Virus genome (UHGV): UHGV-0125821 | Source of the DNA: a virus | Direction: 5' to 3' (one strand) | DNA: 64,000 nt | Shown: in pieces, positions 27,872-61,336 of the stretch | How positions within the stretch are numbered: position 1 is the stretch's first letter | Layout of the letters: the number at the start of each line of letters is the position of its first letter | The notes under the pieces: generated by a model | The model's input: only the letters and a program-made list of their open reading frames with translations | The model's database searches: none | What the model was told of the DNA's origin: nothing | Made by a program: the position numbers and the translations under genes

Positions 27872-28163
27872 TTCATTAACTCCATACTTTACCATCTTAG
27901 CCGCGAGCGCGGTCCCTAAAACCCTTAACTTCACTGCACCGTCCTTCATGCAATCAAAATGACTTTTATGTTATAAAAATAATCAGCAAAATCAACATGA
28001 TTTAGGCCAAATTTCGGTCAAAAATAAAATCCACAAAAAGTGGTTGACACTATTTTGGAAATCACAAACTGCACATAATCCATCGCGCTAACGGCTCCCG
28101 TTGAAGGTTCTTTTGACGATTAACTTTCAGCCGAAGCGCGGTAGGGAGTCATAACGCCAAAGC

Positions 28164-28188
28164 AGGCCGCCATGTGCGGCCTTTTTTT
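28164..28188 (+). terminator. intrinsic terminator immediately upstream of next gene
   Basis: AGGCCGC catgt GCGGCCT followed by T7. Confidence 0.55.
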
Positions 28189-28215
28189 GTATCCGTCATC
28201 CGTGGAGGAAGGACA

Positions 28216-28869
28216 ATGGAAAAGATCGCAATATTCAGCCTGACCACCAGCAAGCCTCAAATGCTCACTGCAATACTGAAAGACGGTGCTCTCATTATTA
28301 ACGAAGTAAAACCCCTCCCCGCGTCAGCATTGGAGCAAAAGCAAAAAATTCCTCCAGCTATAGCAGCCCTGCGGAAAAGCAAATTTAAGGTACTGGTAGA
28401 CGAAATTACGCCAACGATCTCCGCTGGCACCGGAGCAAGCCAGGTGACTCTCAAGACCCGTCATGCCGATGGCAGAGCAGCAATCATCGTCGGGATGGAA
28501 AGATACAGAGAGTTAAAACTCCAGAAGCTATTATCCCTGCCGCAAAATAACAAAGGTGCTTTCGAAATCCCTGACTCCATCGTTGACACCGAATACAACG
28601 GTAACGGAGAAGAAGTCTACCGGGTGAACTGGCAGGATATCAGGCCGGAGCATATTCTGATGATCCTGTGTTGCTACGCAACCGTATACCACAACGTTGC
28701 CAGTGCGGATTACGTAGAGCAGATGATCGGTACAGTCGAGAAAGAGCAAAAAACAGGCATACTCGCTTCGTTCCTGTCCATTATTGGGCATGAAAAAGTT
28801 AAAGCAGGCACCTCCCAGCCAAAGTCACTGACTGGGAAAGAAGTTGATGAAGATACCGTGATACTTTGA
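28216..28869 (+). CDS. hypothetical protein
   Basis: start set at MEKIAIF with SD GGAGGAAGG. Confidence 0.6.
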   Translation: MEKIAIFSLTTSKPQMLTAILKDGALIINEVKPLPASALEQKQKIPPAIAALRKSKFKVLVDEITPTISAGTGASQVTLKTRHADGRAAIIVGMERYRELKLQKLLSLPQNNKGAFEIPDSIVDTEYNGNGEEVYRVNWQDIRPEHILMILCCYATVYHNVASADYVEQMIGTVEKEQKTGILASFLSIIGHEKVKAGTSQPKSLTGKEVDEDTVIL

Positions 28870-29004
28870 TCACATTAGTAGCTTTGTTAACTCCCTCAAT
28901 ACCAGGTAGAAGAGTAACAAAAATATTGACGCGAGTATTTGAGTGGTCAATGAAGCGTTCATAAACAGATCAATTAGCATTAATAATTCGAAGATAACAT
29001 CCAT
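28870..29004 (-). CDS. 44-aa hydrophobic peptide (single TM), type I toxin-like
   Basis: MDVIFELLMLIDLFMNASLTTQILASIFLLLFYLVLRELTKLLM; SD GGAG 9 nt upstream; hand translation, may be off by 1 nt. Confidence 0.35.
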   Translation of the reverse strand: MDVIFELLMLIDLFMNASLTTQILASIFLLLFYLVLRELTKLLM

Positions 29005-29197
29005 GTCATTCACTCCGTTTAATTTTTAATCTAATGCCAGCAAATGAAGCTGGCCCCCGCATAAAGATTAATGAAAGTCACTTGTCACCAGTGAGGGGAT
29101 TTATGAACCACATCCCCCTGAACTGGTGGCCTGTCTGTTTCTCGCATTTCACACCCTGCATACAGTTTCCCCCAGGTTATGACTGAGAGGCTTTGTT

Positions 29198-29527
29198 ATG
29201 GGCTATAGCAGACTCGACGATAGGTACATTGAAGACGATATTTTTCGTGCGCTGTTTCACCAGGAAATGATTAAGCGGGTATCGGAGTATCACTCTGATA
29301 ATTTCCAGTACACGATAAAGATTGATGAAGTATATCGTTCAGATCTTGCAGCCTACCGGGCGTATGGCAATGCAGATTTGCGCTGGGTATTCCGGGTGCT
29401 GGTGGGCCATGAGTCAGAAATGGAAGAAATGCCCGCAGGGACCACGTTAACTCTTCCTGATGTGGCATGGCTGAGGAACAAGATCCGTGATTACGCGAGC
29501 GCGGAACCGGAGATAGAAAATGCCTGA
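29198..29527 (+). CDS. hypothetical protein
   Basis: 109-aa ORF. Confidence 0.55.
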   Translation: MGYSRLDDRYIEDDIFRALFHQEMIKRVSEYHSDNFQYTIKIDEVYRSDLAAYRAYGNADLRWVFRVLVGHESEMEEMPAGTTLTLPDVAWLRNKIRDYASAEPEIENA

Positions 29528-30713
29528 TTTCCTGAAAAACCAGGACGGGCGCTATATCACTGACGGCCTGTCCTCTAAGGACTTCACGCGTTTATTCGAG
29601 CTTATCAGGAAAGAACAAACCCGTAAGCGCCGACAAGCTCACCGGACGCTGACGCCAGGTAGACTGAGGAACAAATCCGCCGAAGATATTCTCAAGTTAG
29701 GGAAGAAAAAAGGCGGCACGTTCTTCACGCGAGACGACCTGAAAGGTTTCGAAAAGCTACGGAGTAAAACGCGCGAAAAATACGACAGCAAGACGGCTGG
29801 CATCACATACGCCCAGCTGGTGGCATCCAGCCAGGCAATCGATATTAAGCGTGCAAATAACGCCGTGGATGACGGATCTGGTATCAAAAGAGCTACACCC
29901 GTATCTCTTCGCCACAATGTGATTAATATCCGCGTAGAAGCATCGGATATATCCGTCCACCAGCACCATATCGTCCGGATACGCTTTGAAGAATGGGATC
30001 AGATGGTTGATGACATCGCAGAAGACGATAAATCAGCTCTCAAAATCACTAAATCACTGTGCGCCGGGCGAGTGTCTTTCGATTGTGACTGTGGTCGTCA
30101 TCAATACTGGTATCGTTACATCGCCACTGCGGGTAACTTTGCCCTGGCACCGCCAAAAGAATACGCCTATCCAAAAGTTCGCAACCCGAAGCTGCAAGGC
30201 GTCGCCTGTAAACACGTGATCCACTCAATGACGCGGTTACAGTCCGCCAGTTGGCAAATGAGTATTGCTCGTGCGCTACAAAAGGCTGCAACGCAAATTG
30301 CATTTGGTGATGATCGCCGCCGTACAACCAAACACTTCTCAAAAGAAGACGAGAAGGAGTTTAATCGCAATCGTAGCAGTAAAACGAACGTTGAAGCCGC
30401 CAAACGCGAATGGAGGCTCTATCAGAAGCGCCAGGCAGCTTTAAGTACAAAACTGGCAAAGGACAACGGCAAGATCGACAAACTACGTGACCAATTGACC
30501 AAGGCCAGAAAGTTGTCAGATGCACAGAAAAAACGGGCGGCAGCAAAAGAAGCGGCCTTGCAACGTGAGAAACAGAAAAACAAGGAGCTTCAGCAACGCC
30601 TTGCCGATCAGTTCGCACTGAAGAAGCAGGCGTTCATTGATGCGCTTGTCATGGCTGGAACACCACCAGCACAAGCTGAAAAAATGTTCATGGAGTATGT
30701 AAAAAAAGCATAA
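29520..30713 (+). CDS. SWIM-type zinc-finger protein with basic coiled-coil C-terminus
   Basis: FDCDCGRHQ ... GVACKHVIH (CxC-Xn-CxH). Confidence 0.65.
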   Translation: MPDFLKNQDGRYITDGLSSKDFTRLFELIRKEQTRKRRQAHRTLTPGRLRNKSAEDILKLGKKKGGTFFTRDDLKGFEKLRSKTREKYDSKTAGITYAQLVASSQAIDIKRANNAVDDGSGIKRATPVSLRHNVINIRVEASDISVHQHHIVRIRFEEWDQMVDDIAEDDKSALKITKSLCAGRVSFDCDCGRHQYWYRYIATAGNFALAPPKEYAYPKVRNPKLQGVACKHVIHSMTRLQSASWQMSIARALQKAATQIAFGDDRRRTTKHFSKEDEKEFNRNRSSKTNVEAAKREWRLYQKRQAALSTKLAKDNGKIDKLRDQLTKARKLSDAQKKRAAAKEAALQREKQKNKELQQRLADQFALKKQAFIDALVMAGTPPAQAEKMFMEYVKKA

Positions 30714-31496: not shown

Positions 31497-31697
31497 TTAT
31501 GGATAGTTAAAAGATTCAACAGGTGATGGTGGTTGAATTGGGTAATGTTTCTTCTCGTACTCCTCAATGAGAAGACTCATAACCTCAAAGAAATCACCTT
31601 CCGGAGTATTCATTTCCGGTTCGTTATCGAACATCGGTTCGACCGCACGCAGTGCGGCCTCATAATCTTGTTCTGTACGGATAGGTTTAATGTTCAT
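31497..31697 (-). CDS. 66-aa protein resembling the N-terminal domain of HigA-type antitoxins, no HTH
   Basis: IRTEQDYEAALRAVEPMFDNEPEMNTPEGDFFEVMSLLIEEYEKKHYPI; no obvious SD. Confidence 0.45.
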   Translation of the reverse strand: MNIKPIRTEQDYEAALRAVEPMFDNEPEMNTPEGDFFEVMSLLIEEYEKKHYPIQPPSPVESFNYP

Positions 31698-31753: not shown

Positions 31754-32092
31754 TCAGGCTGCTTTTTTATTCAGGTTCCGCTGAGAAATAAATTTTTCAG
31801 CAGTATTGATACGACTTAACTCTTCCTGAACGCGCATATCATTTTCGACTTCCCACAGATCTACTGCGGTCTGAAGATTAATCCAAAAATCTACAGAAGT
31901 ATCGAATGCTTTTGCCAGGCGATATGCCATATCCATCGTTAGCTTACGATTGTTATTAACAAGAGCACTTACGGTGTTACGATGAACATGAAGTATTTCT
32001 GCTAACTCGTTGATCTTCAGCTCTAACGGCTCCAGGTATTCGTACAGCAGGATATCACCTACGGTCGTCGGTTTTCTGGTTGCCTGTTTCAT
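31754..32092 (-). CDS. higA: HigA-family antitoxin (XRE-type HTH)
   Basis: TTVGDILLYEYLEPLELKINELAEILHVHRNTVSALVNNNRKLT. Confidence 0.8.
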   Translation of the reverse strand: MKQATRKPTTVGDILLYEYLEPLELKINELAEILHVHRNTVSALVNNNRKLTMDMAYRLAKAFDTSVDFWINLQTAVDLWEVENDMRVQEELSRINTAEKFISQRNLNKKAA

Positions 32093-32162
32093 TTTTTGCC
32101 CTTACTAGCGTGCGTATTAAGTGGACTCTGGTCAGAACCCGGTCCGTAACCGGGTATCTGTT

Positions 32163-32465
32163 TTAGTATTTGTGAGGGTCGAGATACAAGTCCTCGGCCT
32201 TTCCGTTAACCCACTTAAAAATTAACCTATATTGCTTATTCACCCTTACTGATGAATAGCCATTTAGCTTCCCTGACAGTTCCTCATACCGATTACCTGG
32301 TGGTGATCTTAAATCCTTACAGGTAGTTGCGGCATTGATAATGTCCAACTTCCGTGACAATGTCATATGAATATCAGGAGGTATCTTTCTATGTGGTGTT
32401 GAAAATTCAAAAAAATCATCAAGCCACGCATCCCTGAAATCCTTTATGTTAATTTTTTTGGTCAT
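32163..32465 (-). CDS. higB: HigB-family toxin (RelE/ParE superfamily)
   Basis: DFRDAWLDDFF...HRKIPPDI...LRSPPGNRYEEL...RLIFKW...LYLDPHKY. Confidence 0.8.
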   Translation of the reverse strand: MTKKINIKDFRDAWLDDFFEFSTPHRKIPPDIHMTLSRKLDIINAATTCKDLRSPPGNRYEELSGKLNGYSSVRVNKQYRLIFKWVNGKAEDLYLDPHKY

Positions 32466-45902: not shown

Positions 45903-47600
45903 GTGAATAAAAACATTCAGCCAGCTCGTGATCGCGAGCGCGAGATTATGAATCGGGCGGCAAGCGTCATGGCTATGACCGTCGATCCGACCACCGATGC
46001 AGCAGGCAACATGATTGCTGACCAGGCAGTAATGATGGAAAACCTGGATAAAGCAATCCAGAAAGTGCCTATGTTTGAAGGCGTAAATCCAGAGGTCGCT
46101 CGTCAGATCACTGGTGGGTGGGCTATGTCTCTGCATGAGTATAAACGTCAACATGGTCATTACCCGGCAAGTGACATCCTGGCGAACGCACACATGGCTC
46201 TTGAGCGCCTGATGACTGAATGTGCCAGTGATACCCATGAAGGCACGGGTAAGGCAATGTTTGAGTCTGTCGCGCAATCAATGCGTAGCTCTGACGGCGT
46301 AATGAAAGTTGCTCAATATGCTGCTCTAATTCTGCCTGCCTCTCTGGGCGCTGCTACCAGTGATGCCTGTACTTTTGTTCCTTGTGATCGTGACGAGTCA
46401 AATATTTATGAACTGGTCAACGTAGCAGGCACAAAATTCGGCACCTTCAACCAAGGTGACGAACTGAATATGCAGTCAGCTGGTGTTTATTCTCAAATGA
46501 AGCGCCTGTATGCCCTTTCCACTAAAGGGGATGGCAGCACCAAAACCTTCCAGTTCAACATCCAAAAATTTGAGGGACAATCCTGCCCGCTTCGCGCTGG
46601 TTATAACAAACTGCTGATCAACCGCAAACCGTCCAAAGTTGACGACGGCGATGGCAACCTTTATTTCAATGCTAAAGACAGCAAAGGTAATACTTTCTCA
46701 GCGACTGCCAAAGTTGCCTATGACACTGGTGTCATTGACATTACATTTACCCAGGCTCCGCCAGAAGGTACTGAAATTGCTGTTCAGGTCGAAATTAACA
46801 TCGAGCGCAATCCAAGCCTGATTCCGGTGATCAACCAGGCTATGCGTAAGTACGAAGTTCGTCCGTCCCAGTACGTACTTGCTTCCGAACACACGGTAAT
46901 GTCCGCATCCGATTTAAGCCGTGAGCACGGCCTTGAATTAGCGGCACTTCAGTTCTCCGCGATGCGTAACTGGATCTCCCATGAAACCGACATCATGCGT
47001 CTGCGCACCCTGGTATTCCATACCGTTTATGGTCGTGAATTTGATGTGGCTCTGCCGGAAGCTCAAAACTATGAGTCCTGGGTCGGCCTCCTGCGTCACG
47101 TAGTAAACGCTCTGTCTCAAGAAATGGCAAATCGTACCCTGACAACGGGTATTCGTGGCGGCTTTGCTGGTAGTGACGCCGCGAACTTCCTGCGCTCTCT
47201 GCCTCCACAGCACTTCCAGATCGCACCAGGTTACGTTCAGTCGCCGTATGTACAGTACATCGGCACCCTGTTTGGCACGATTCGTATTTACGAAGTGCCG
47301 CAACCTGTCTGTGAGCAATTCCAGGCACAGGGATATGACTTCGGGCTGGATGACATCTTCTTCTATGGGCGTGGCGAAGGCATTGGTAAAGCCGGTCTGA
47401 TTGCTGGTGATGCAGTCCCAGCAATCCCTTACGTTCACGAAACCAATCCGTCTCTCGTTAACCGTACCACTCTCTGGGGCAGTGCCATCAACGAAGTACA
47501 TCCTCGCAACGGTGAAAACTACTTCACCCGCCTGCGTCTGACTCGTGCCAAAGAAGGTGCTTTCGACATGCTGACAGGCAAGGTTAACGAAAAAAAGTGA
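45903..47600 (+). CDS. major capsid protein candidate
   Basis: 565 aa, GTG start; assignment by size, late-block context and Ig-like fragments downstream. Confidence 0.55.
   Translation: MNKNIQPARDREREIMNRAASVMAMTVDPTTDAAGNMIADQAVMMENLDKAIQKVPMFEGVNPEVARQITGGWAMSLHEYKRQHGHYPASDILANAHMALERLMTECASDTHEGTGKAMFESVAQSMRSSDGVMKVAQYAALILPASLGAATSDACTFVPCDRDESNIYELVNVAGTKFGTFNQGDELNMQSAGVYSQMKRLYALSTKGDGSTKTFQFNIQKFEGQSCPLRAGYNKLLINRKPSKVDDGDGNLYFNAKDSKGNTFSATAKVAYDTGVIDITFTQAPPEGTEIAVQVEINIERNPSLIPVINQAMRKYEVRPSQYVLASEHTVMSASDLSREHGLELAALQFSAMRNWISHETDIMRLRTLVFHTVYGREFDVALPEAQNYESWVGLLRHVVNALSQEMANRTLTTGIRGGFAGSDAANFLRSLPPQHFQIAPGYVQSPYVQYIGTLFGTIRIYEVPQPVCEQFQAQGYDFGLDDIFFYGRGEGIGKAGLIAGDAVPAIPYVHETNPSLVNRTTLWGSAINEVHPRNGENYFTRLRLTRAKEGAFDMLTGKVNEKK
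47591..47597 (+). other. A_AAA_AAG slippery heptamer at last codons of capsid-candidate gene
   Basis: codons GAA AAA AAG TGA; -1 frame continues 35 codons. Confidence 0.35.
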
Positions 47601-53087: not shown

Positions 53088-53384
53088 TTGAGGGCATTTT
53101 TTACATCATCAATTCATCTGTAATGAAGGCATTCTTTACACATTTCAATAATATCAATCAGTTAACACAGTGAATGATAATAAAAAAGCGCAATAAGAAT
53201 GCACGATACGCACGATATTGGTTGAGGGCGATTTTTACATAGTCCTTACATATCAATACGTTATATAAAAACACAACTTGCTAATAACAAGATACATGCA
53301 ATTAAGATGTAAAAATTGCCCTCAATTGCCGATCGTTAAGGGCAAATTCTACACCTTGAGAGGGGTGTAAAAATTGCCCTTAAG
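53088..53384. repeat. iteron array downstream of repA (incA-like), five copies in both orientations
   Basis: TTGAGGGCATTTTTTACATC, TTGAGGGCGATTTTTACAT and relatives in AT-rich DNA; last copy overlaps repA stop. Confidence 0.6.
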
Positions 53385-54135
53385 ACTGCTGATAGGTAAA
53401 TTTTATCCTGGTAACTTTGCCGCCTTCCGTCACCTCTGAGAAGACTATTTTCATTTTTGTATTTTTTTCAATCTCTGCTACAGCCTTCGTTAAAAAACTT
53501 CTCTTAAATTCGGCATACCGCTGATAGCTTTTTGGTAACCCATAACGCTCCCGCATCCATTCGACGCCAAGTATGGCAAAGCCGCTTCCATCATCCTTCC
53601 TGTACTGGCATAAGGACTCATAAAGCCGCATAGAATAAGGATTTGTAAGGCGAGATACTTCGGTAAAATTCAGCCTTGTGAATCTCTTATCAAGCAGAGT
53701 AAAAAACGGCATGAGATATGGATTAAGATGAATAATGTAAGTCCCGCGACGTGGTGAATAGGCATCCTTAATCATCCAGGGATAAGACTCATAACTGTCT
53801 TCTGATTCGGTCGATTCATCAGGGTTATATATCGTAACTTTCTTCTCGCTAAGACCTGAAATGGCCTTACGAATATCCTTGCTGGCTTCAGCAGAGGGCA
53901 AATTATACATCTCTGCATATTCGTTGACCGTCAACTCACAGGCACCTGAACCAAGAACGCCATCCTTAGAAGCATAGCGAAGTCTTCCCACCACAATAAA
54001 CAACAGTCGCTTTTGGTCGCGAGTCAGGTGATAAGCAGCCTCCGTGATCTCATTGGCTTGTGCCAAACTACGACTAATAGGTGTCGCTGACTCAATCAGG
54101 CTGACGGCTTTTGCTGTTAATTCCGCTCTGTTCAT
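53380..54135 (-). CDS. repA: iteron-binding replication initiator RepA (Rep_3-like)
   Basis: TNPYSMRLYESLCQYR signature-like block; flanked by iterons; start set at internal ATG. Confidence 0.75.
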   Translation of the reverse strand: MNRAELTAKAVSLIESATPISRSLAQANEITEAAYHLTRDQKRLLFIVVGRLRYASKDGVLGSGACELTVNEYAEMYNLPSAEASKDIRKAISGLSEKKVTIYNPDESTESEDSYESYPWMIKDAYSPRRGTYIIHLNPYLMPFFTLLDKRFTRLNFTEVSRLTNPYSMRLYESLCQYRKDDGSGFAILGVEWMRERYGLPKSYQRYAEFKRSFLTKAVAEIEKNTKMKIVFSEVTEGGKVTRIKFTYQQS

Positions 54136-54159
54136 AACCCTGTGTGATCCTTCAAATGG

Positions 54160-54277
54160 TGAGGGCAATTTTTACATCACTTTGAGGGCAATTACTACAC
54201 CTTTTGAGGGCAAATCTTACACCTTCTGAGGGCAAATCTTACACCGACCGTATTTAATTGAGGGCAAATCTTACACC
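54160..54277. repeat. iteron array upstream of repA (incC/oriR-like), five direct copies
   Basis: TTGAGGGCAAATCTTACACC at 22-bp spacing; sixth inverted copy near 54400. Confidence 0.7.
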
Positions 54278-59909: not shown

Positions 59910-61336
59910 CGATTACAGAATTACTGGACAAATTTAACGCCAAGTTAAATGAAAACACATGGTGGTCACGATTTGTAAATAGTCAGTTTGTGCAGATGCA
60001 CGCTATATTCGGATCGCAGCTTATTTATATTGCCCGTACATTTGCAAGCCGCGGCCTCACTGAGGGACTTATTTCAACGGCAACGCGTCGCTCAAGTATT
60101 TTAGCGGTTGCTGAAGACCGTAGCTACGTAGGGCGATTTGTTAGTGCTTCATACGGAACAACGTCTATAACCAATAAAACTGATCGGGATATTACGTTAC
60201 CAGCCGGGGCTGAATTGCTTGCCAATGACCAAACACCTTTGGCAATTATTAACAGTGTTGTAATTCCTGCTGGAGGAACTGTTTCTGGCGTAGAAACTAA
60301 ACAGCATGAAGCTGTTAGCATTACATTTGATATTGAGAAGGAAACTTTATTTCTGACATTGTTGCTTTCCAGAGAGTTAACAAAAGAAGTCTCTAGCCTG
60401 GATGTTTATGTTATTACAGATGGAGTAGAAGAAAAATGGACATATAACCCATTATTTAGAATGTCCAGAGACAAGAGTAAGCACTATTCATTGGCATATA
60501 AACCTACAGAACAACTTGGAGTCAAGTTTGGTGATGGTTCTATGGGTATGATGCCTCCAGCAGGCTGTCAGGTTCGAATCGATGTTATGGCTAGCCTTGG
60601 CGACTATACTTTGGCTGAAGGACAAAAGTTAGAACCGGCTGGAAATATCGCTCAATATGTGGAGTCACTAGAGTTTAAAACTGATTCGATCATTACCGGT
60701 GGTAGTGGTATGGAAACTACAGAAGAAACTCGAAATCGTGCTCAGTATTATGTTGCATACGATGAACAAGTGGTATGGGGCGGTGATTATCGCCAATTCA
60801 TTCAGAATGTTGTTCATGGAACTTCATGGTTGAACGTTTGGGGCGAAGCGTTACAAGAGAAAATAACTGGGTTTGACGTTCGAAACATCAACAAAATTTT
60901 CTTTTGCGGACATAAGCCGGGTGTAAGCCAGGCTCAGCTAAAATCAGAAATACTGAAAGCTCTAGAGAATGTTCCAAATGAGTTGAACAAGCGGTTCGAG
61001 TATGTAGATACAAATGAACAGCCATTTACTATAAATTTTATAGGTATTGCACGTAAAAATGTTCTGATAGACGATGCTCAAAATGCTATTAAAGCAGCAT
61101 TGGAAGATAATTTTGGCCGTGATTCGTCATCATTCAGTTTATTACTACAGAGTGATGATGATTCCCAACAATGTTATGCACAGGTAAAAGTTAAAGATAT
61201 TTGGCGAGTAATAGAGTCTCTGGATATGTTTCTGTCTTACGACATAACAATACAAAATATGAAAGATGCTGTTTACTTTAATGACTTCATTTATCTTAAC
61301 GTAAAATCTTCAACGTTCAGCATTTCTTACCCGTAA
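59906..61336 (+). CDS. baseplate protein (gpJ-like)
   Basis: 476 aa, position and size. Confidence 0.6.
   Translation: MTITELLDKFNAKLNENTWWSRFVNSQFVQMHAIFGSQLIYIARTFASRGLTEGLISTATRRSSILAVAEDRSYVGRFVSASYGTTSITNKTDRDITLPAGAELLANDQTPLAIINSVVIPAGGTVSGVETKQHEAVSITFDIEKETLFLTLLLSRELTKEVSSLDVYVITDGVEEKWTYNPLFRMSRDKSKHYSLAYKPTEQLGVKFGDGSMGMMPPAGCQVRIDVMASLGDYTLAEGQKLEPAGNIAQYVESLEFKTDSIITGGSGMETTEETRNRAQYYVAYDEQVVWGGDYRQFIQNVVHGTSWLNVWGEALQEKITGFDVRNINKIFFCGHKPGVSQAQLKSEILKALENVPNELNKRFEYVDTNEQPFTINFIGIARKNVLIDDAQNAIKAALEDNFGRDSSSFSLLLQSDDDSQQCYAQVKVKDIWRVIESLDMFLSYDITIQNMKDAVYFNDFIYLNVKSSTFSISYP

Follow-up and report, generated by a model that had tools for sequence, protein, structure and literature searches.

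We analyzed orf77, a 44-codon gene on the minus strand of virus genome UHGV-0125821, in a stretch of 64,000 nucleotides (the window) that is a D6-type plasmid prophage related to phage P1. With about even confidence, we conclude that orf77 is a genuine gene of the D6 lineage that encodes a small peptide of the membrane and is expressed from a late promoter of the P1 type. The gene lies in a 328-bp gap between mat and the homologue of P1 gene 26, with gene 25 next, where a sequence-only reading of the window had proposed a hidden open reading frame (ORF) for a type I toxin-like peptide. The frame itself was described exactly in that reading: a minus-strand ATG at 29004, a GGAG upstream (29016–29013, with 8 nt between), 44 codons, and the peptide quoted. 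The ORF is not hidden, however: it is annotated as a "hypothetical protein" in the GenBank record of phage D6 (MF356679, D6_77 / orf77), the Prokaryotic Genome Annotation Pipeline (PGAP) calls a second version of it in one relative (allele B, described below; WP_032323274.1), and it has its own PHROG, phrog_38362, without an assigned function. The gene and the signals that precede it are:

28870–29004, minus strand: orf77 coding sequence, 44 amino acids, MDVIFELLMLIDLFMNASLTTQILASIFLLLFYLVLRELTKLLM; its stop codon (28870–28872) abuts the mat stop codon
29013–29016, minus strand: Shine-Dalgarno sequence GGAG, 8 nt before the orf77 ATG, read from the sequence
29036–29054, minus strand: 5' leader hairpin GCCAGC-uucauuu-GCUGGC, preceded by a G run at 29055–29058
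29058, minus strand: predicted transcription start, 7 nt after the −10 element and giving a 54-nt leader, from promoter geometry only
29065–29086, minus strand: LPorf77, a P1-type Lpa late promoter, gacAAGTGACTT-tcat-TAATCT, in which gacAAGTGACTT is gac-AAGTGACTT, the box spans 29083–29075 and the −10 element spans 29070–29065

To judge whether orf77 is a gene, we considered both the ORF and its variation among relatives. The ORF by itself is not significant: when gaps of matching composition are generated by a Markov model, 38% contain an ATG-initiated ORF of at least 44 codons and 4% contain one that is also transmembrane (TM)-like. In addition, the minus strand at the gap is T-rich, which alone favors hydrophobic codons. 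The status of orf77 as a gene thus rests on the substitution pattern in relatives rather than on the ORF alone. The region 28100–29600 is 100% identical to the Escherichia coli plasmid ptetA (NZ_CP047013) and 98.7% identical to phage D6 (MF356679), and the locus is carried by ~100 complete E. coli genomes and by 119 PLSDB plasmids from Escherichia, Salmonella, and Shigella; for the alignment of the gap we used relatives at 88–99% identity. One record, L005 (NZ_MK356557), was left out of the frame analysis, for which it is unsuitable because it contains many small indels even within mat and gene 26; it is probably an uncorrected long-read sequence.

Conservation in relatives was the check that the sequence-only reading had proposed, and orf77 came through it: the frame is open in all good-quality relatives (n = 10), and the ratio of nonsynonymous to synonymous polymorphism (pN/pS) within alleles is 0.08–0.24 (0.14–0.19 in allele B), compared with at least 0.4 in the other frames, except for the antisense frame that shares the wobble position, which is not open across the region. 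Variable sites fall predominantly at the third codon position in each of the two allele groups, with counts over the three positions of 5/5/15 in allele A (15 of 24–25 at position 3, P = 0.006) and 7/3/13 in allele B (13 of 23, P = 0.02). The allele B peptide, MNTFNKLIDLLNKFISASLTKQVSTSVFLLLFYLVLRELTKLLM, again has 44 codons; its N-terminal half has diverged strongly from that of allele A, and its C-terminal half is shared; both alleles are exactly 44 codons long and retain the C-terminal FLLLFYLVLRELTKLLM. We considered, and rejected, the idea that plasmids carrying a higBA cassette lack the N-terminal half of orf77, as the second allele is present there instead. All 119 D6-like PLSDB plasmids have orf77, ~100 as allele A and 18 as allele B. 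We conclude from these substitution patterns that orf77 is a genuine coding gene under purifying selection in two independent allele groups. It is a clean case in which comparison among relatives shows a tiny ORF, of a kind that PGAP often skips, to be coding, although as a gene it is a modest result, another orphan among the small membrane proteins of temperate phages.

Although present throughout these plasmids, orf77 is an accessory rather than a core gene. In L008 (CP125072), an insertion sequence (1164–2500, with a transposase of ~400 amino acids) lies within orf77 at the position equivalent to window 28913/28914 while the plasmid is otherwise intact, and orf77 is therefore dispensable for plasmid maintenance. 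Two alternative reading frames were rejected: an 18-codon upstream ORF in allele A, the frame of which is broken in L004 and L012, and a 63-amino acid N-terminal extension in allele B, where the variation is nonsynonymous and lies mainly in the hairpin loop and where PGAP calls the 44-amino acid form. We additionally observed one orf77 variant on a 642-kb contig, which may be chromosomal or a chimeric assembly, and one 157-amino acid protein that starts with the full orf77 sequence, which probably reflects loss of the orf77 stop codon and read-through into the antisense strand of mat.

The sequence-only reading had described the product as essentially a single TM helix. A hydrophobic, TM-like segment is indeed present, as the best 19-residue Kyte–Doolittle window scores 2.07 in allele A and 1.66–1.91 in allele B, both above the TM threshold of 1.6, but AlphaFold gives two helices rather than one (residues 2–16 and 19–43, predicted local distance difference test 94.9), with a break at the invariant A17–S18. 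The predicted fold is thus a short amphipathic N-terminal helix followed by a 25-residue hydrophobic C-terminal helix. We found no matches to orf77 in Pfam (including its holins), NCBIfam, or PADLOC at E values up to 10, no similarity to Protein Data Bank chains, and no sequence similarity to the P1 protein LydC. Word-indexed searches retrieved no variant below 80% identity, an exhaustive profile search over 1.84 billion representatives yielded eight near-identical orf77 sequences and nothing else, and tblastn against phages returned D6 only. By these searches, orf77 is an orphan that is restricted to D6-type elements, without remote relatives detectable by hidden Markov models.

We next consider how orf77 would be expressed. 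LPorf77 has the sequence of a canonical P1-type Lpa late promoter and is the only promoter-like element before orf77; the promoter scan of the window found neither a −35 element nor a σ70 promoter there. Promoters of this type are activated by Lpa, together with the host protein SspA, late in infection. Like the P1 late promoters LPmat, LP23, LPpac, and LPS, LPorf77 has a 9-bp inverted repeat, AAGTGACTT, near −22 that is preceded by (g/a)ac, a 4-nt spacer, a TAnnnT −10 element, and no −35 element. Its box, which fits the inverted repeat A[A/T]GTGACTT, is the same as the boxes of P1 LPmat (gacAAGTGACTT-cagt-CAGAAT) and LP23 (aacAAGTGACTT-tcaa-TAAAAT), and its 4-nt spacer is as in P1 LPpac (gacATGTGACTT-tcgt-TACCCT) and LP26 (AAATGACTA-gcgg-TAGAAT). 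Unlike those promoters, it lies in a D6-type genome, the late promoters of which have the box AAATCACAM and a 6-nt spacer, and it precedes a tiny orphan gene that is oriented opposite to the late operons.

The LPorf77 box is invariant in 10 sequences that include both alleles, while its flanks diverge; the −10 element is TAATCT, or TAAACT or TAACCT in allele B. About 18 of the 119 plasmids carry a higB/higA (RelE/ParE-HigA) cassette between the orf77 promoter box and LP26, the promoter of the gene 26 operon (L009 2571–3569; also L010, L018, and L019; equivalent to window 29087–29134), and the sequence upstream of LPorf77 switches wholly between the higBA-bearing and higBA-free plasmids. The box is a mosaic breakpoint, as L018 joins the higBA cassette to orf77 allele A with the breakpoint exactly at the LPorf77 box, and mosaic breakpoints coincide with the upstream edge of the element. 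Downstream of the promoter, the leader hairpin in allele A keeps its stem core, CCAG(C)/(G)CTGG, with a loop of 7, 10, or 12 nt, while allele B has instead a 9-bp stem, ACCAGCUC(6)GAGCUGGU, equally far from the −10 element. Because the box is invariant and the hairpin stem is either kept or replaced in place, we suggest that the functional module consists of the box, the −10 element, the 5' hairpin, and the ORF of 44 codons. The start codon of orf77 is covered by a local stem. Neither the leader nor the whole transcript folds significantly (z = −1.3 to −1.9), and the messenger RNA (mRNA) shows no long-range closing.

We therefore asked whether these features fit the type I toxin–antitoxin system suggested by the sequence-only reading, in which orf77 would be a membrane toxin whose translation an antisense RNA represses, the two together stabilizing the plasmid prophage. 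Like type I toxins (Hok/Gef, TisB, ZorO, ShoB, Ldr, and DinQ), orf77 is shorter than 60 amino acids, hydrophobic, α-helical, and located on a mobile element; the locus is a hot spot in which higBA, a type II toxin–antitoxin cassette, adjoins orf77, a local stem lies over the start codon, and the window has a weak plus-strand σ70-like site at 28958–28987. The convergent mat gene is a further point for an antisense arrangement: a scan found no terminator between the mat stop codon and orf77, and a mat read-through transcript would be antisense to orf77. However, orf77 matched none of the described type I toxin families (Hok/Gef, Ldr, TisB, Ibs, ShoB, Zor, DinQ, Fst, and others), and an Rfam scan of 28600–29400 at E values up to 10 returned no small RNA (sRNA) family, only noise from eukaryotic small nucleolar RNAs and microRNAs. 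The site at 28958–28987 scores no better than chance and is missing from L007 and L009 (a divergent allele A and an allele B, respectively), and the mRNA shows neither the long structured form nor the 5'–3' closure of type I toxin mRNAs. In addition, orf77 lacks a dedicated antisense RNA gene and a constitutive promoter, and the plasmid already has addiction modules of the phd/doc and higBA types. The promoter is of the activator-dependent late type instead of σ70, and the silence in the lysogen that this predicts is the opposite of the constitutive toxin mRNA needed for type I plasmid addiction. We consider a type I system highly improbable at this locus.

Because its promoter depends on a late activator, orf77 should be silent in the lysogen. 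In the explanation that we favor, an Lpa-family late activator, most simply D6's own Lpa in lytic growth, would switch the gene on; the transcript would carry a leader of ~54 nt, the 5' hairpin of which may stabilize the mRNA; and the two-helix peptide would insert in the inner membrane with its C terminus (R37 and K41) inside. There it could perturb or tune membrane integrity late in the cycle as a lysis-timing factor, a holin-accessory factor, or an exclusion-type membrane effector. We infer both the expression and the membrane activity from sequence. An alternative, to which we give very little weight, is that the lysogen already makes orf77 as a small membrane protein, perhaps to exclude superinfecting phages, either from an unrecognized weak promoter or through leakage of the late promoter. 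Many prophage exclusion proteins are small membrane proteins of this kind, and orf77 fits the pattern, as its product is a small single-pass membrane protein and the gene is situated among accessory genes in a hot spot, oriented against the late operons. Against this, orf77 has no homology to known exclusion proteins or defense families, and the conserved element upstream is the late promoter and not a σ70-like one: no σ70 promoter is conserved in the relatives on either strand, and the window scan for such promoters is at chance level.

Several observations weigh against the favored explanation. The transcription start and leader of orf77 derive from promoter geometry only, and its Shine-Dalgarno sequence varies among relatives (AGTG in L006, AGAG in L018, and GGA-type in allele B), so that it is weak or degraded in some. 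As to a role in lysis, orf77 has a TM domain but ends in RELTKLLM, without the strongly charged C terminus typical of holins and without holin homology or similarity to LydC, and it lies outside the lysis cassette, the D6 lysis genes (orf16, lydA, and lydB) being elsewhere. Finally, all nine late promoters of D6's own late genes are of the AAATCACAM-N6 form, with another box and another spacing than LPorf77, and the Lpa proteins of D6 and P1 share only ~32% identity. Because the promoter dialects differ and the identity of the two activators is this low, D6 Lpa may not read LPorf77. Of note, D6 orf5, which adjoins lpa, was considered as a second Lpa paralogue and rejected, as it is unrelated to Lpa.

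The two promoter dialects can be compared over whole genomes. By lining up the regions upstream of late operons, we found the D6-type late-promoter motif AAATCACA[A/C/T]-N6-NAnnnT, which has eight exact copies and no stray matches in the 91-kb D6-type genome. The copies are all correctly oriented upstream of mat, 7, 23, pmgB, R, the endolysin-like orf16, the portal gene, and ddrB, and the distance from motif to start codon is 30–60 nt, except for mat (~140 nt). Over the whole of P1, the P1-type pattern picks out the promoters of mat, prt, lyz, dar, S, pmgC, 23, 26, and pac; its single match in the D6-type genome of 91 kb is LPorf77, where ~0.04 would be expected by chance. In P1, in turn, the D6-dialect box occurs in exact form just once, as AAATCACAA-agtaca-TACCGT, and lies 41 nt upstream of lydC, which encodes a holin homologue, and the P1 record annotates no late promoter for this gene. 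LPorf77 thereby exposes two late-promoter dialects in the P1/D6 family with one reciprocal exception per genome, both before membrane proteins. The exact D6-dialect boxes are:

Window 28059, 32566, 45833, 54465, and 62228, plus strand: exact copies of the D6-type late-promoter motif
D6 (MF356679) 19215 (plus strand), 25241 (minus strand), and 27747 (minus strand): further exact copies
P1 (L021, OP279344) 27030→27010, minus strand (AF234172 ~31571–31591): the D6-dialect box of lydC

These reciprocal exceptions raise the question of which activator reads LPorf77. One answer, which we regard as rather unlikely but well short of negligible, is that the Lpa of a P1/P7-type phage, either co-resident or superinfecting, reads LPorf77 in place of D6 Lpa or in addition to it, such that the rival's late phase would trigger orf77 and cause premature depolarization or lysis, and P1 would do the same to D6 through lydC. 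The distribution of the boxes speaks for it, with the sole P1-dialect late promoter of the D6-type genome before orf77, D6's own late genes all in the N6 dialect under a divergent Lpa, and the sole D6-dialect box of P1 before lydC. That box is invariant in four P1-type lineages in which the lydC leader and coding sequence have diverged to ~78% identity. The lydC gene is reported to be monocistronic, outside the late regulon, lethal when cloned, and only accessory for P1 lysis (PMC9025707). Moreover, P1-type phages lack a homologue of orf77, and simple import of the gene along with its promoter therefore does not account for it. However, there is only one case per side and the pattern was noticed post hoc; the lydC box sits in a block that is conserved also for the cin promoters; and the perfect conservation of LPorf77 suggests frequent use. 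The dialects are also related, as TTGTGATTT, the reverse complement of the D6 box, is at most two mismatches from P1 boxes, so that cross-reading by each phage's own Lpa is possible. The robust difference between the dialects is a 2-bp shift in spacing, and each Lpa could read both, with the second dialect setting a different strength or timing.

By the same token, we think it improbable, though worth stating, that D6 and P1 types each keep one membrane-lesion gene (orf77 and lydC, respectively) wired to the rival's late activator for mutual abortive infection or exclusion. LydC (93 amino acids) is like orf77 in being a lone small membrane protein whose gene stands behind its genome's single foreign-dialect late box, and it is accessory for the lysis of its own phage; unlike orf77 (44 amino acids, an orphan without similarity to it), it has two TM segments and is a recognizable member of the holin family. 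Late-promoter cross-activation between related elements has a precedent in P2 Ogr and P4 δ, where satellites use the late activators of their helpers. The likeness is that a gene's promoter is matched to the late activator of another element; the difference is that the aim there is to hijack structural genes, while here a single membrane peptide would be controlled and its activation by a rival Lpa is a hypothesis. If true, such cross-sensing would represent a novel form of conflict between phage-plasmids, one open to direct testing, and could account for the puzzling accessory holin LydC of P1. D6- and P1-type elements commonly carry resistance genes in E. coli and Salmonella, so their competition has practical interest. 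Two further P1-type boxes in P1 OP279344 (L021/L022) are not among the annotated late promoters that we saw: a perfect late box, AAGTGACTT-tagc-CAGCAT, at 46181 (minus strand) between kilA and repL, pointing antisense into kilA, and a one-mismatch late box at 73058 (minus strand) inside gene 7.

We also considered that the transcript rather than the peptide matters, with late or rival-activated RNA from 29058 running through orf77 into mat as an antisense RNA that damps mat, and the peptide being secondary. The geometry would allow this, as orf77 abuts the mat stop codon and we found no minus-strand terminator after orf77 for several hundred bases, only a weak site at 28430–28408, and the box antisense into kilA in P1 offers a parallel. 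However, the peptide is under clear purifying selection in both alleles, the N-terminal half included, which would not be expected if only the transcript mattered; furthermore, mat is itself a late gene with a D6-type promoter, and the reason to oppose it is unclear. We judge an antisense function to be very unlikely as the main role of the locus. Returning to the favored explanation, in which the peptide is the product that counts, the remainder of the gap and its borders hold the following features:

28216–28869, plus strand: mat (maturation control), convergent with orf77
29078–29161, minus strand: "orf76" of the D6 record (27 amino acids), overlapping LP26 and the inverted repeat
29088–29126: imperfect inverted repeat CCAGTGAGGGGAT(11)ATCCCCCTGAACTGG, between the two divergent promoters
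29146–29166, plus strand: LP26, ATTTCACAC-cctgca-TACAGT, with two box mismatches to the D6-type motif; its −10 element ends 31 nt before the ATG at 29198
29198–29527, plus strand: homologue of P1 gene 26 (baseplate), 40.6% identical to P1 gp26 and the first gene served by LP26

The most conserved stretches of the gap are noncoding, 29063–29100 (2 of 38 columns variable) and 29117–29186 (7 of 70). The first holds LPorf77. The second is conserved because LP26 lies there, and LP26 is kept in plasmids in which 28932–29134 is replaced; judging from its sequence and position, 29146–29166 is in all likelihood the late promoter of the gene 26–25 baseplate/tail operon. A scan of genome contigs with gp26 returned one close relative and no others. 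The inverted repeat is absent from the higBA-carrying plasmids and half-deleted in L003, and hence lies outside the orf77 module; it lacks the features of a terminator and may serve to end or to insulate the mat transcript. What remains of the gap had been described as free of ORFs and as holding small hairpins that would accompany an antisense or regulatory RNA. The hairpins are real (29036–29054 and 29088–29126), but the gap does contain a 50-amino acid plus-strand ORF (29034–29186) and the 27-amino acid orf76. Neither frame is conserved: the former is not kept in relatives and was set aside as a candidate, and the latter is broken or shortened in L003, L004, and L007 and is probably a spurious annotation. 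No Rfam match and no conserved plus-strand promoter point to the proposed RNA. Rather, the gap is a pair of divergent late promoters with a leader, its hairpin, and an inverted repeat, and not an sRNA gene.

Among other sources and signals, a paper on the ST213 D6-like plasmid does not mention the locus, and an LF82 transcriptome paper was set aside as a data source because it concerns an SSU5-like and not a D6-like phage-plasmid. The 12-mers of the gap recur elsewhere in the window at chance level only, and scans for the P1 C1 operator, with the consensus and the operator-like AATTAGCATTAATAATT, found no recurrent sites. The stretch from mat to gene 7 is a hot spot for accessory genes within the tail region. 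A second RelE/HigA-type module lies at 31754–32465 (minus strand) between the gene 26–25 and gene 7 late operons; it includes an extra HigA-like gene, which is truncated in the 100% identical plasmid record.

Upstream of mat, a strong intrinsic-terminator-like hairpin (AGGCCGCCATGTGCGGCCT followed by TTTTTTT) lies at 28164–28192 (plus strand), between the mat promoter (28059–28079) and the start at 28216. Its sequence and position suggest attenuation or antitermination control of mat. Since the listed GTG start at 28174 lies inside this hairpin, mat likely starts at the ATG at 28216. Elsewhere in the window, we observed a P1-like element, TAATGACTT-catt-TATCTT, at 61279–61297 (plus strand), ~50 nt upstream of the gene 16 start and within the end of bplA, which could be an internal late promoter or a chance occurrence. 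Finally, four tandem units of ~20 bp (GAGGGCAAATCTTACACC-like) at 54169–54275 (plus strand) adjoin a repA-like gene (53380–54168, minus strand) and, by their sequence, look like replication iterons.

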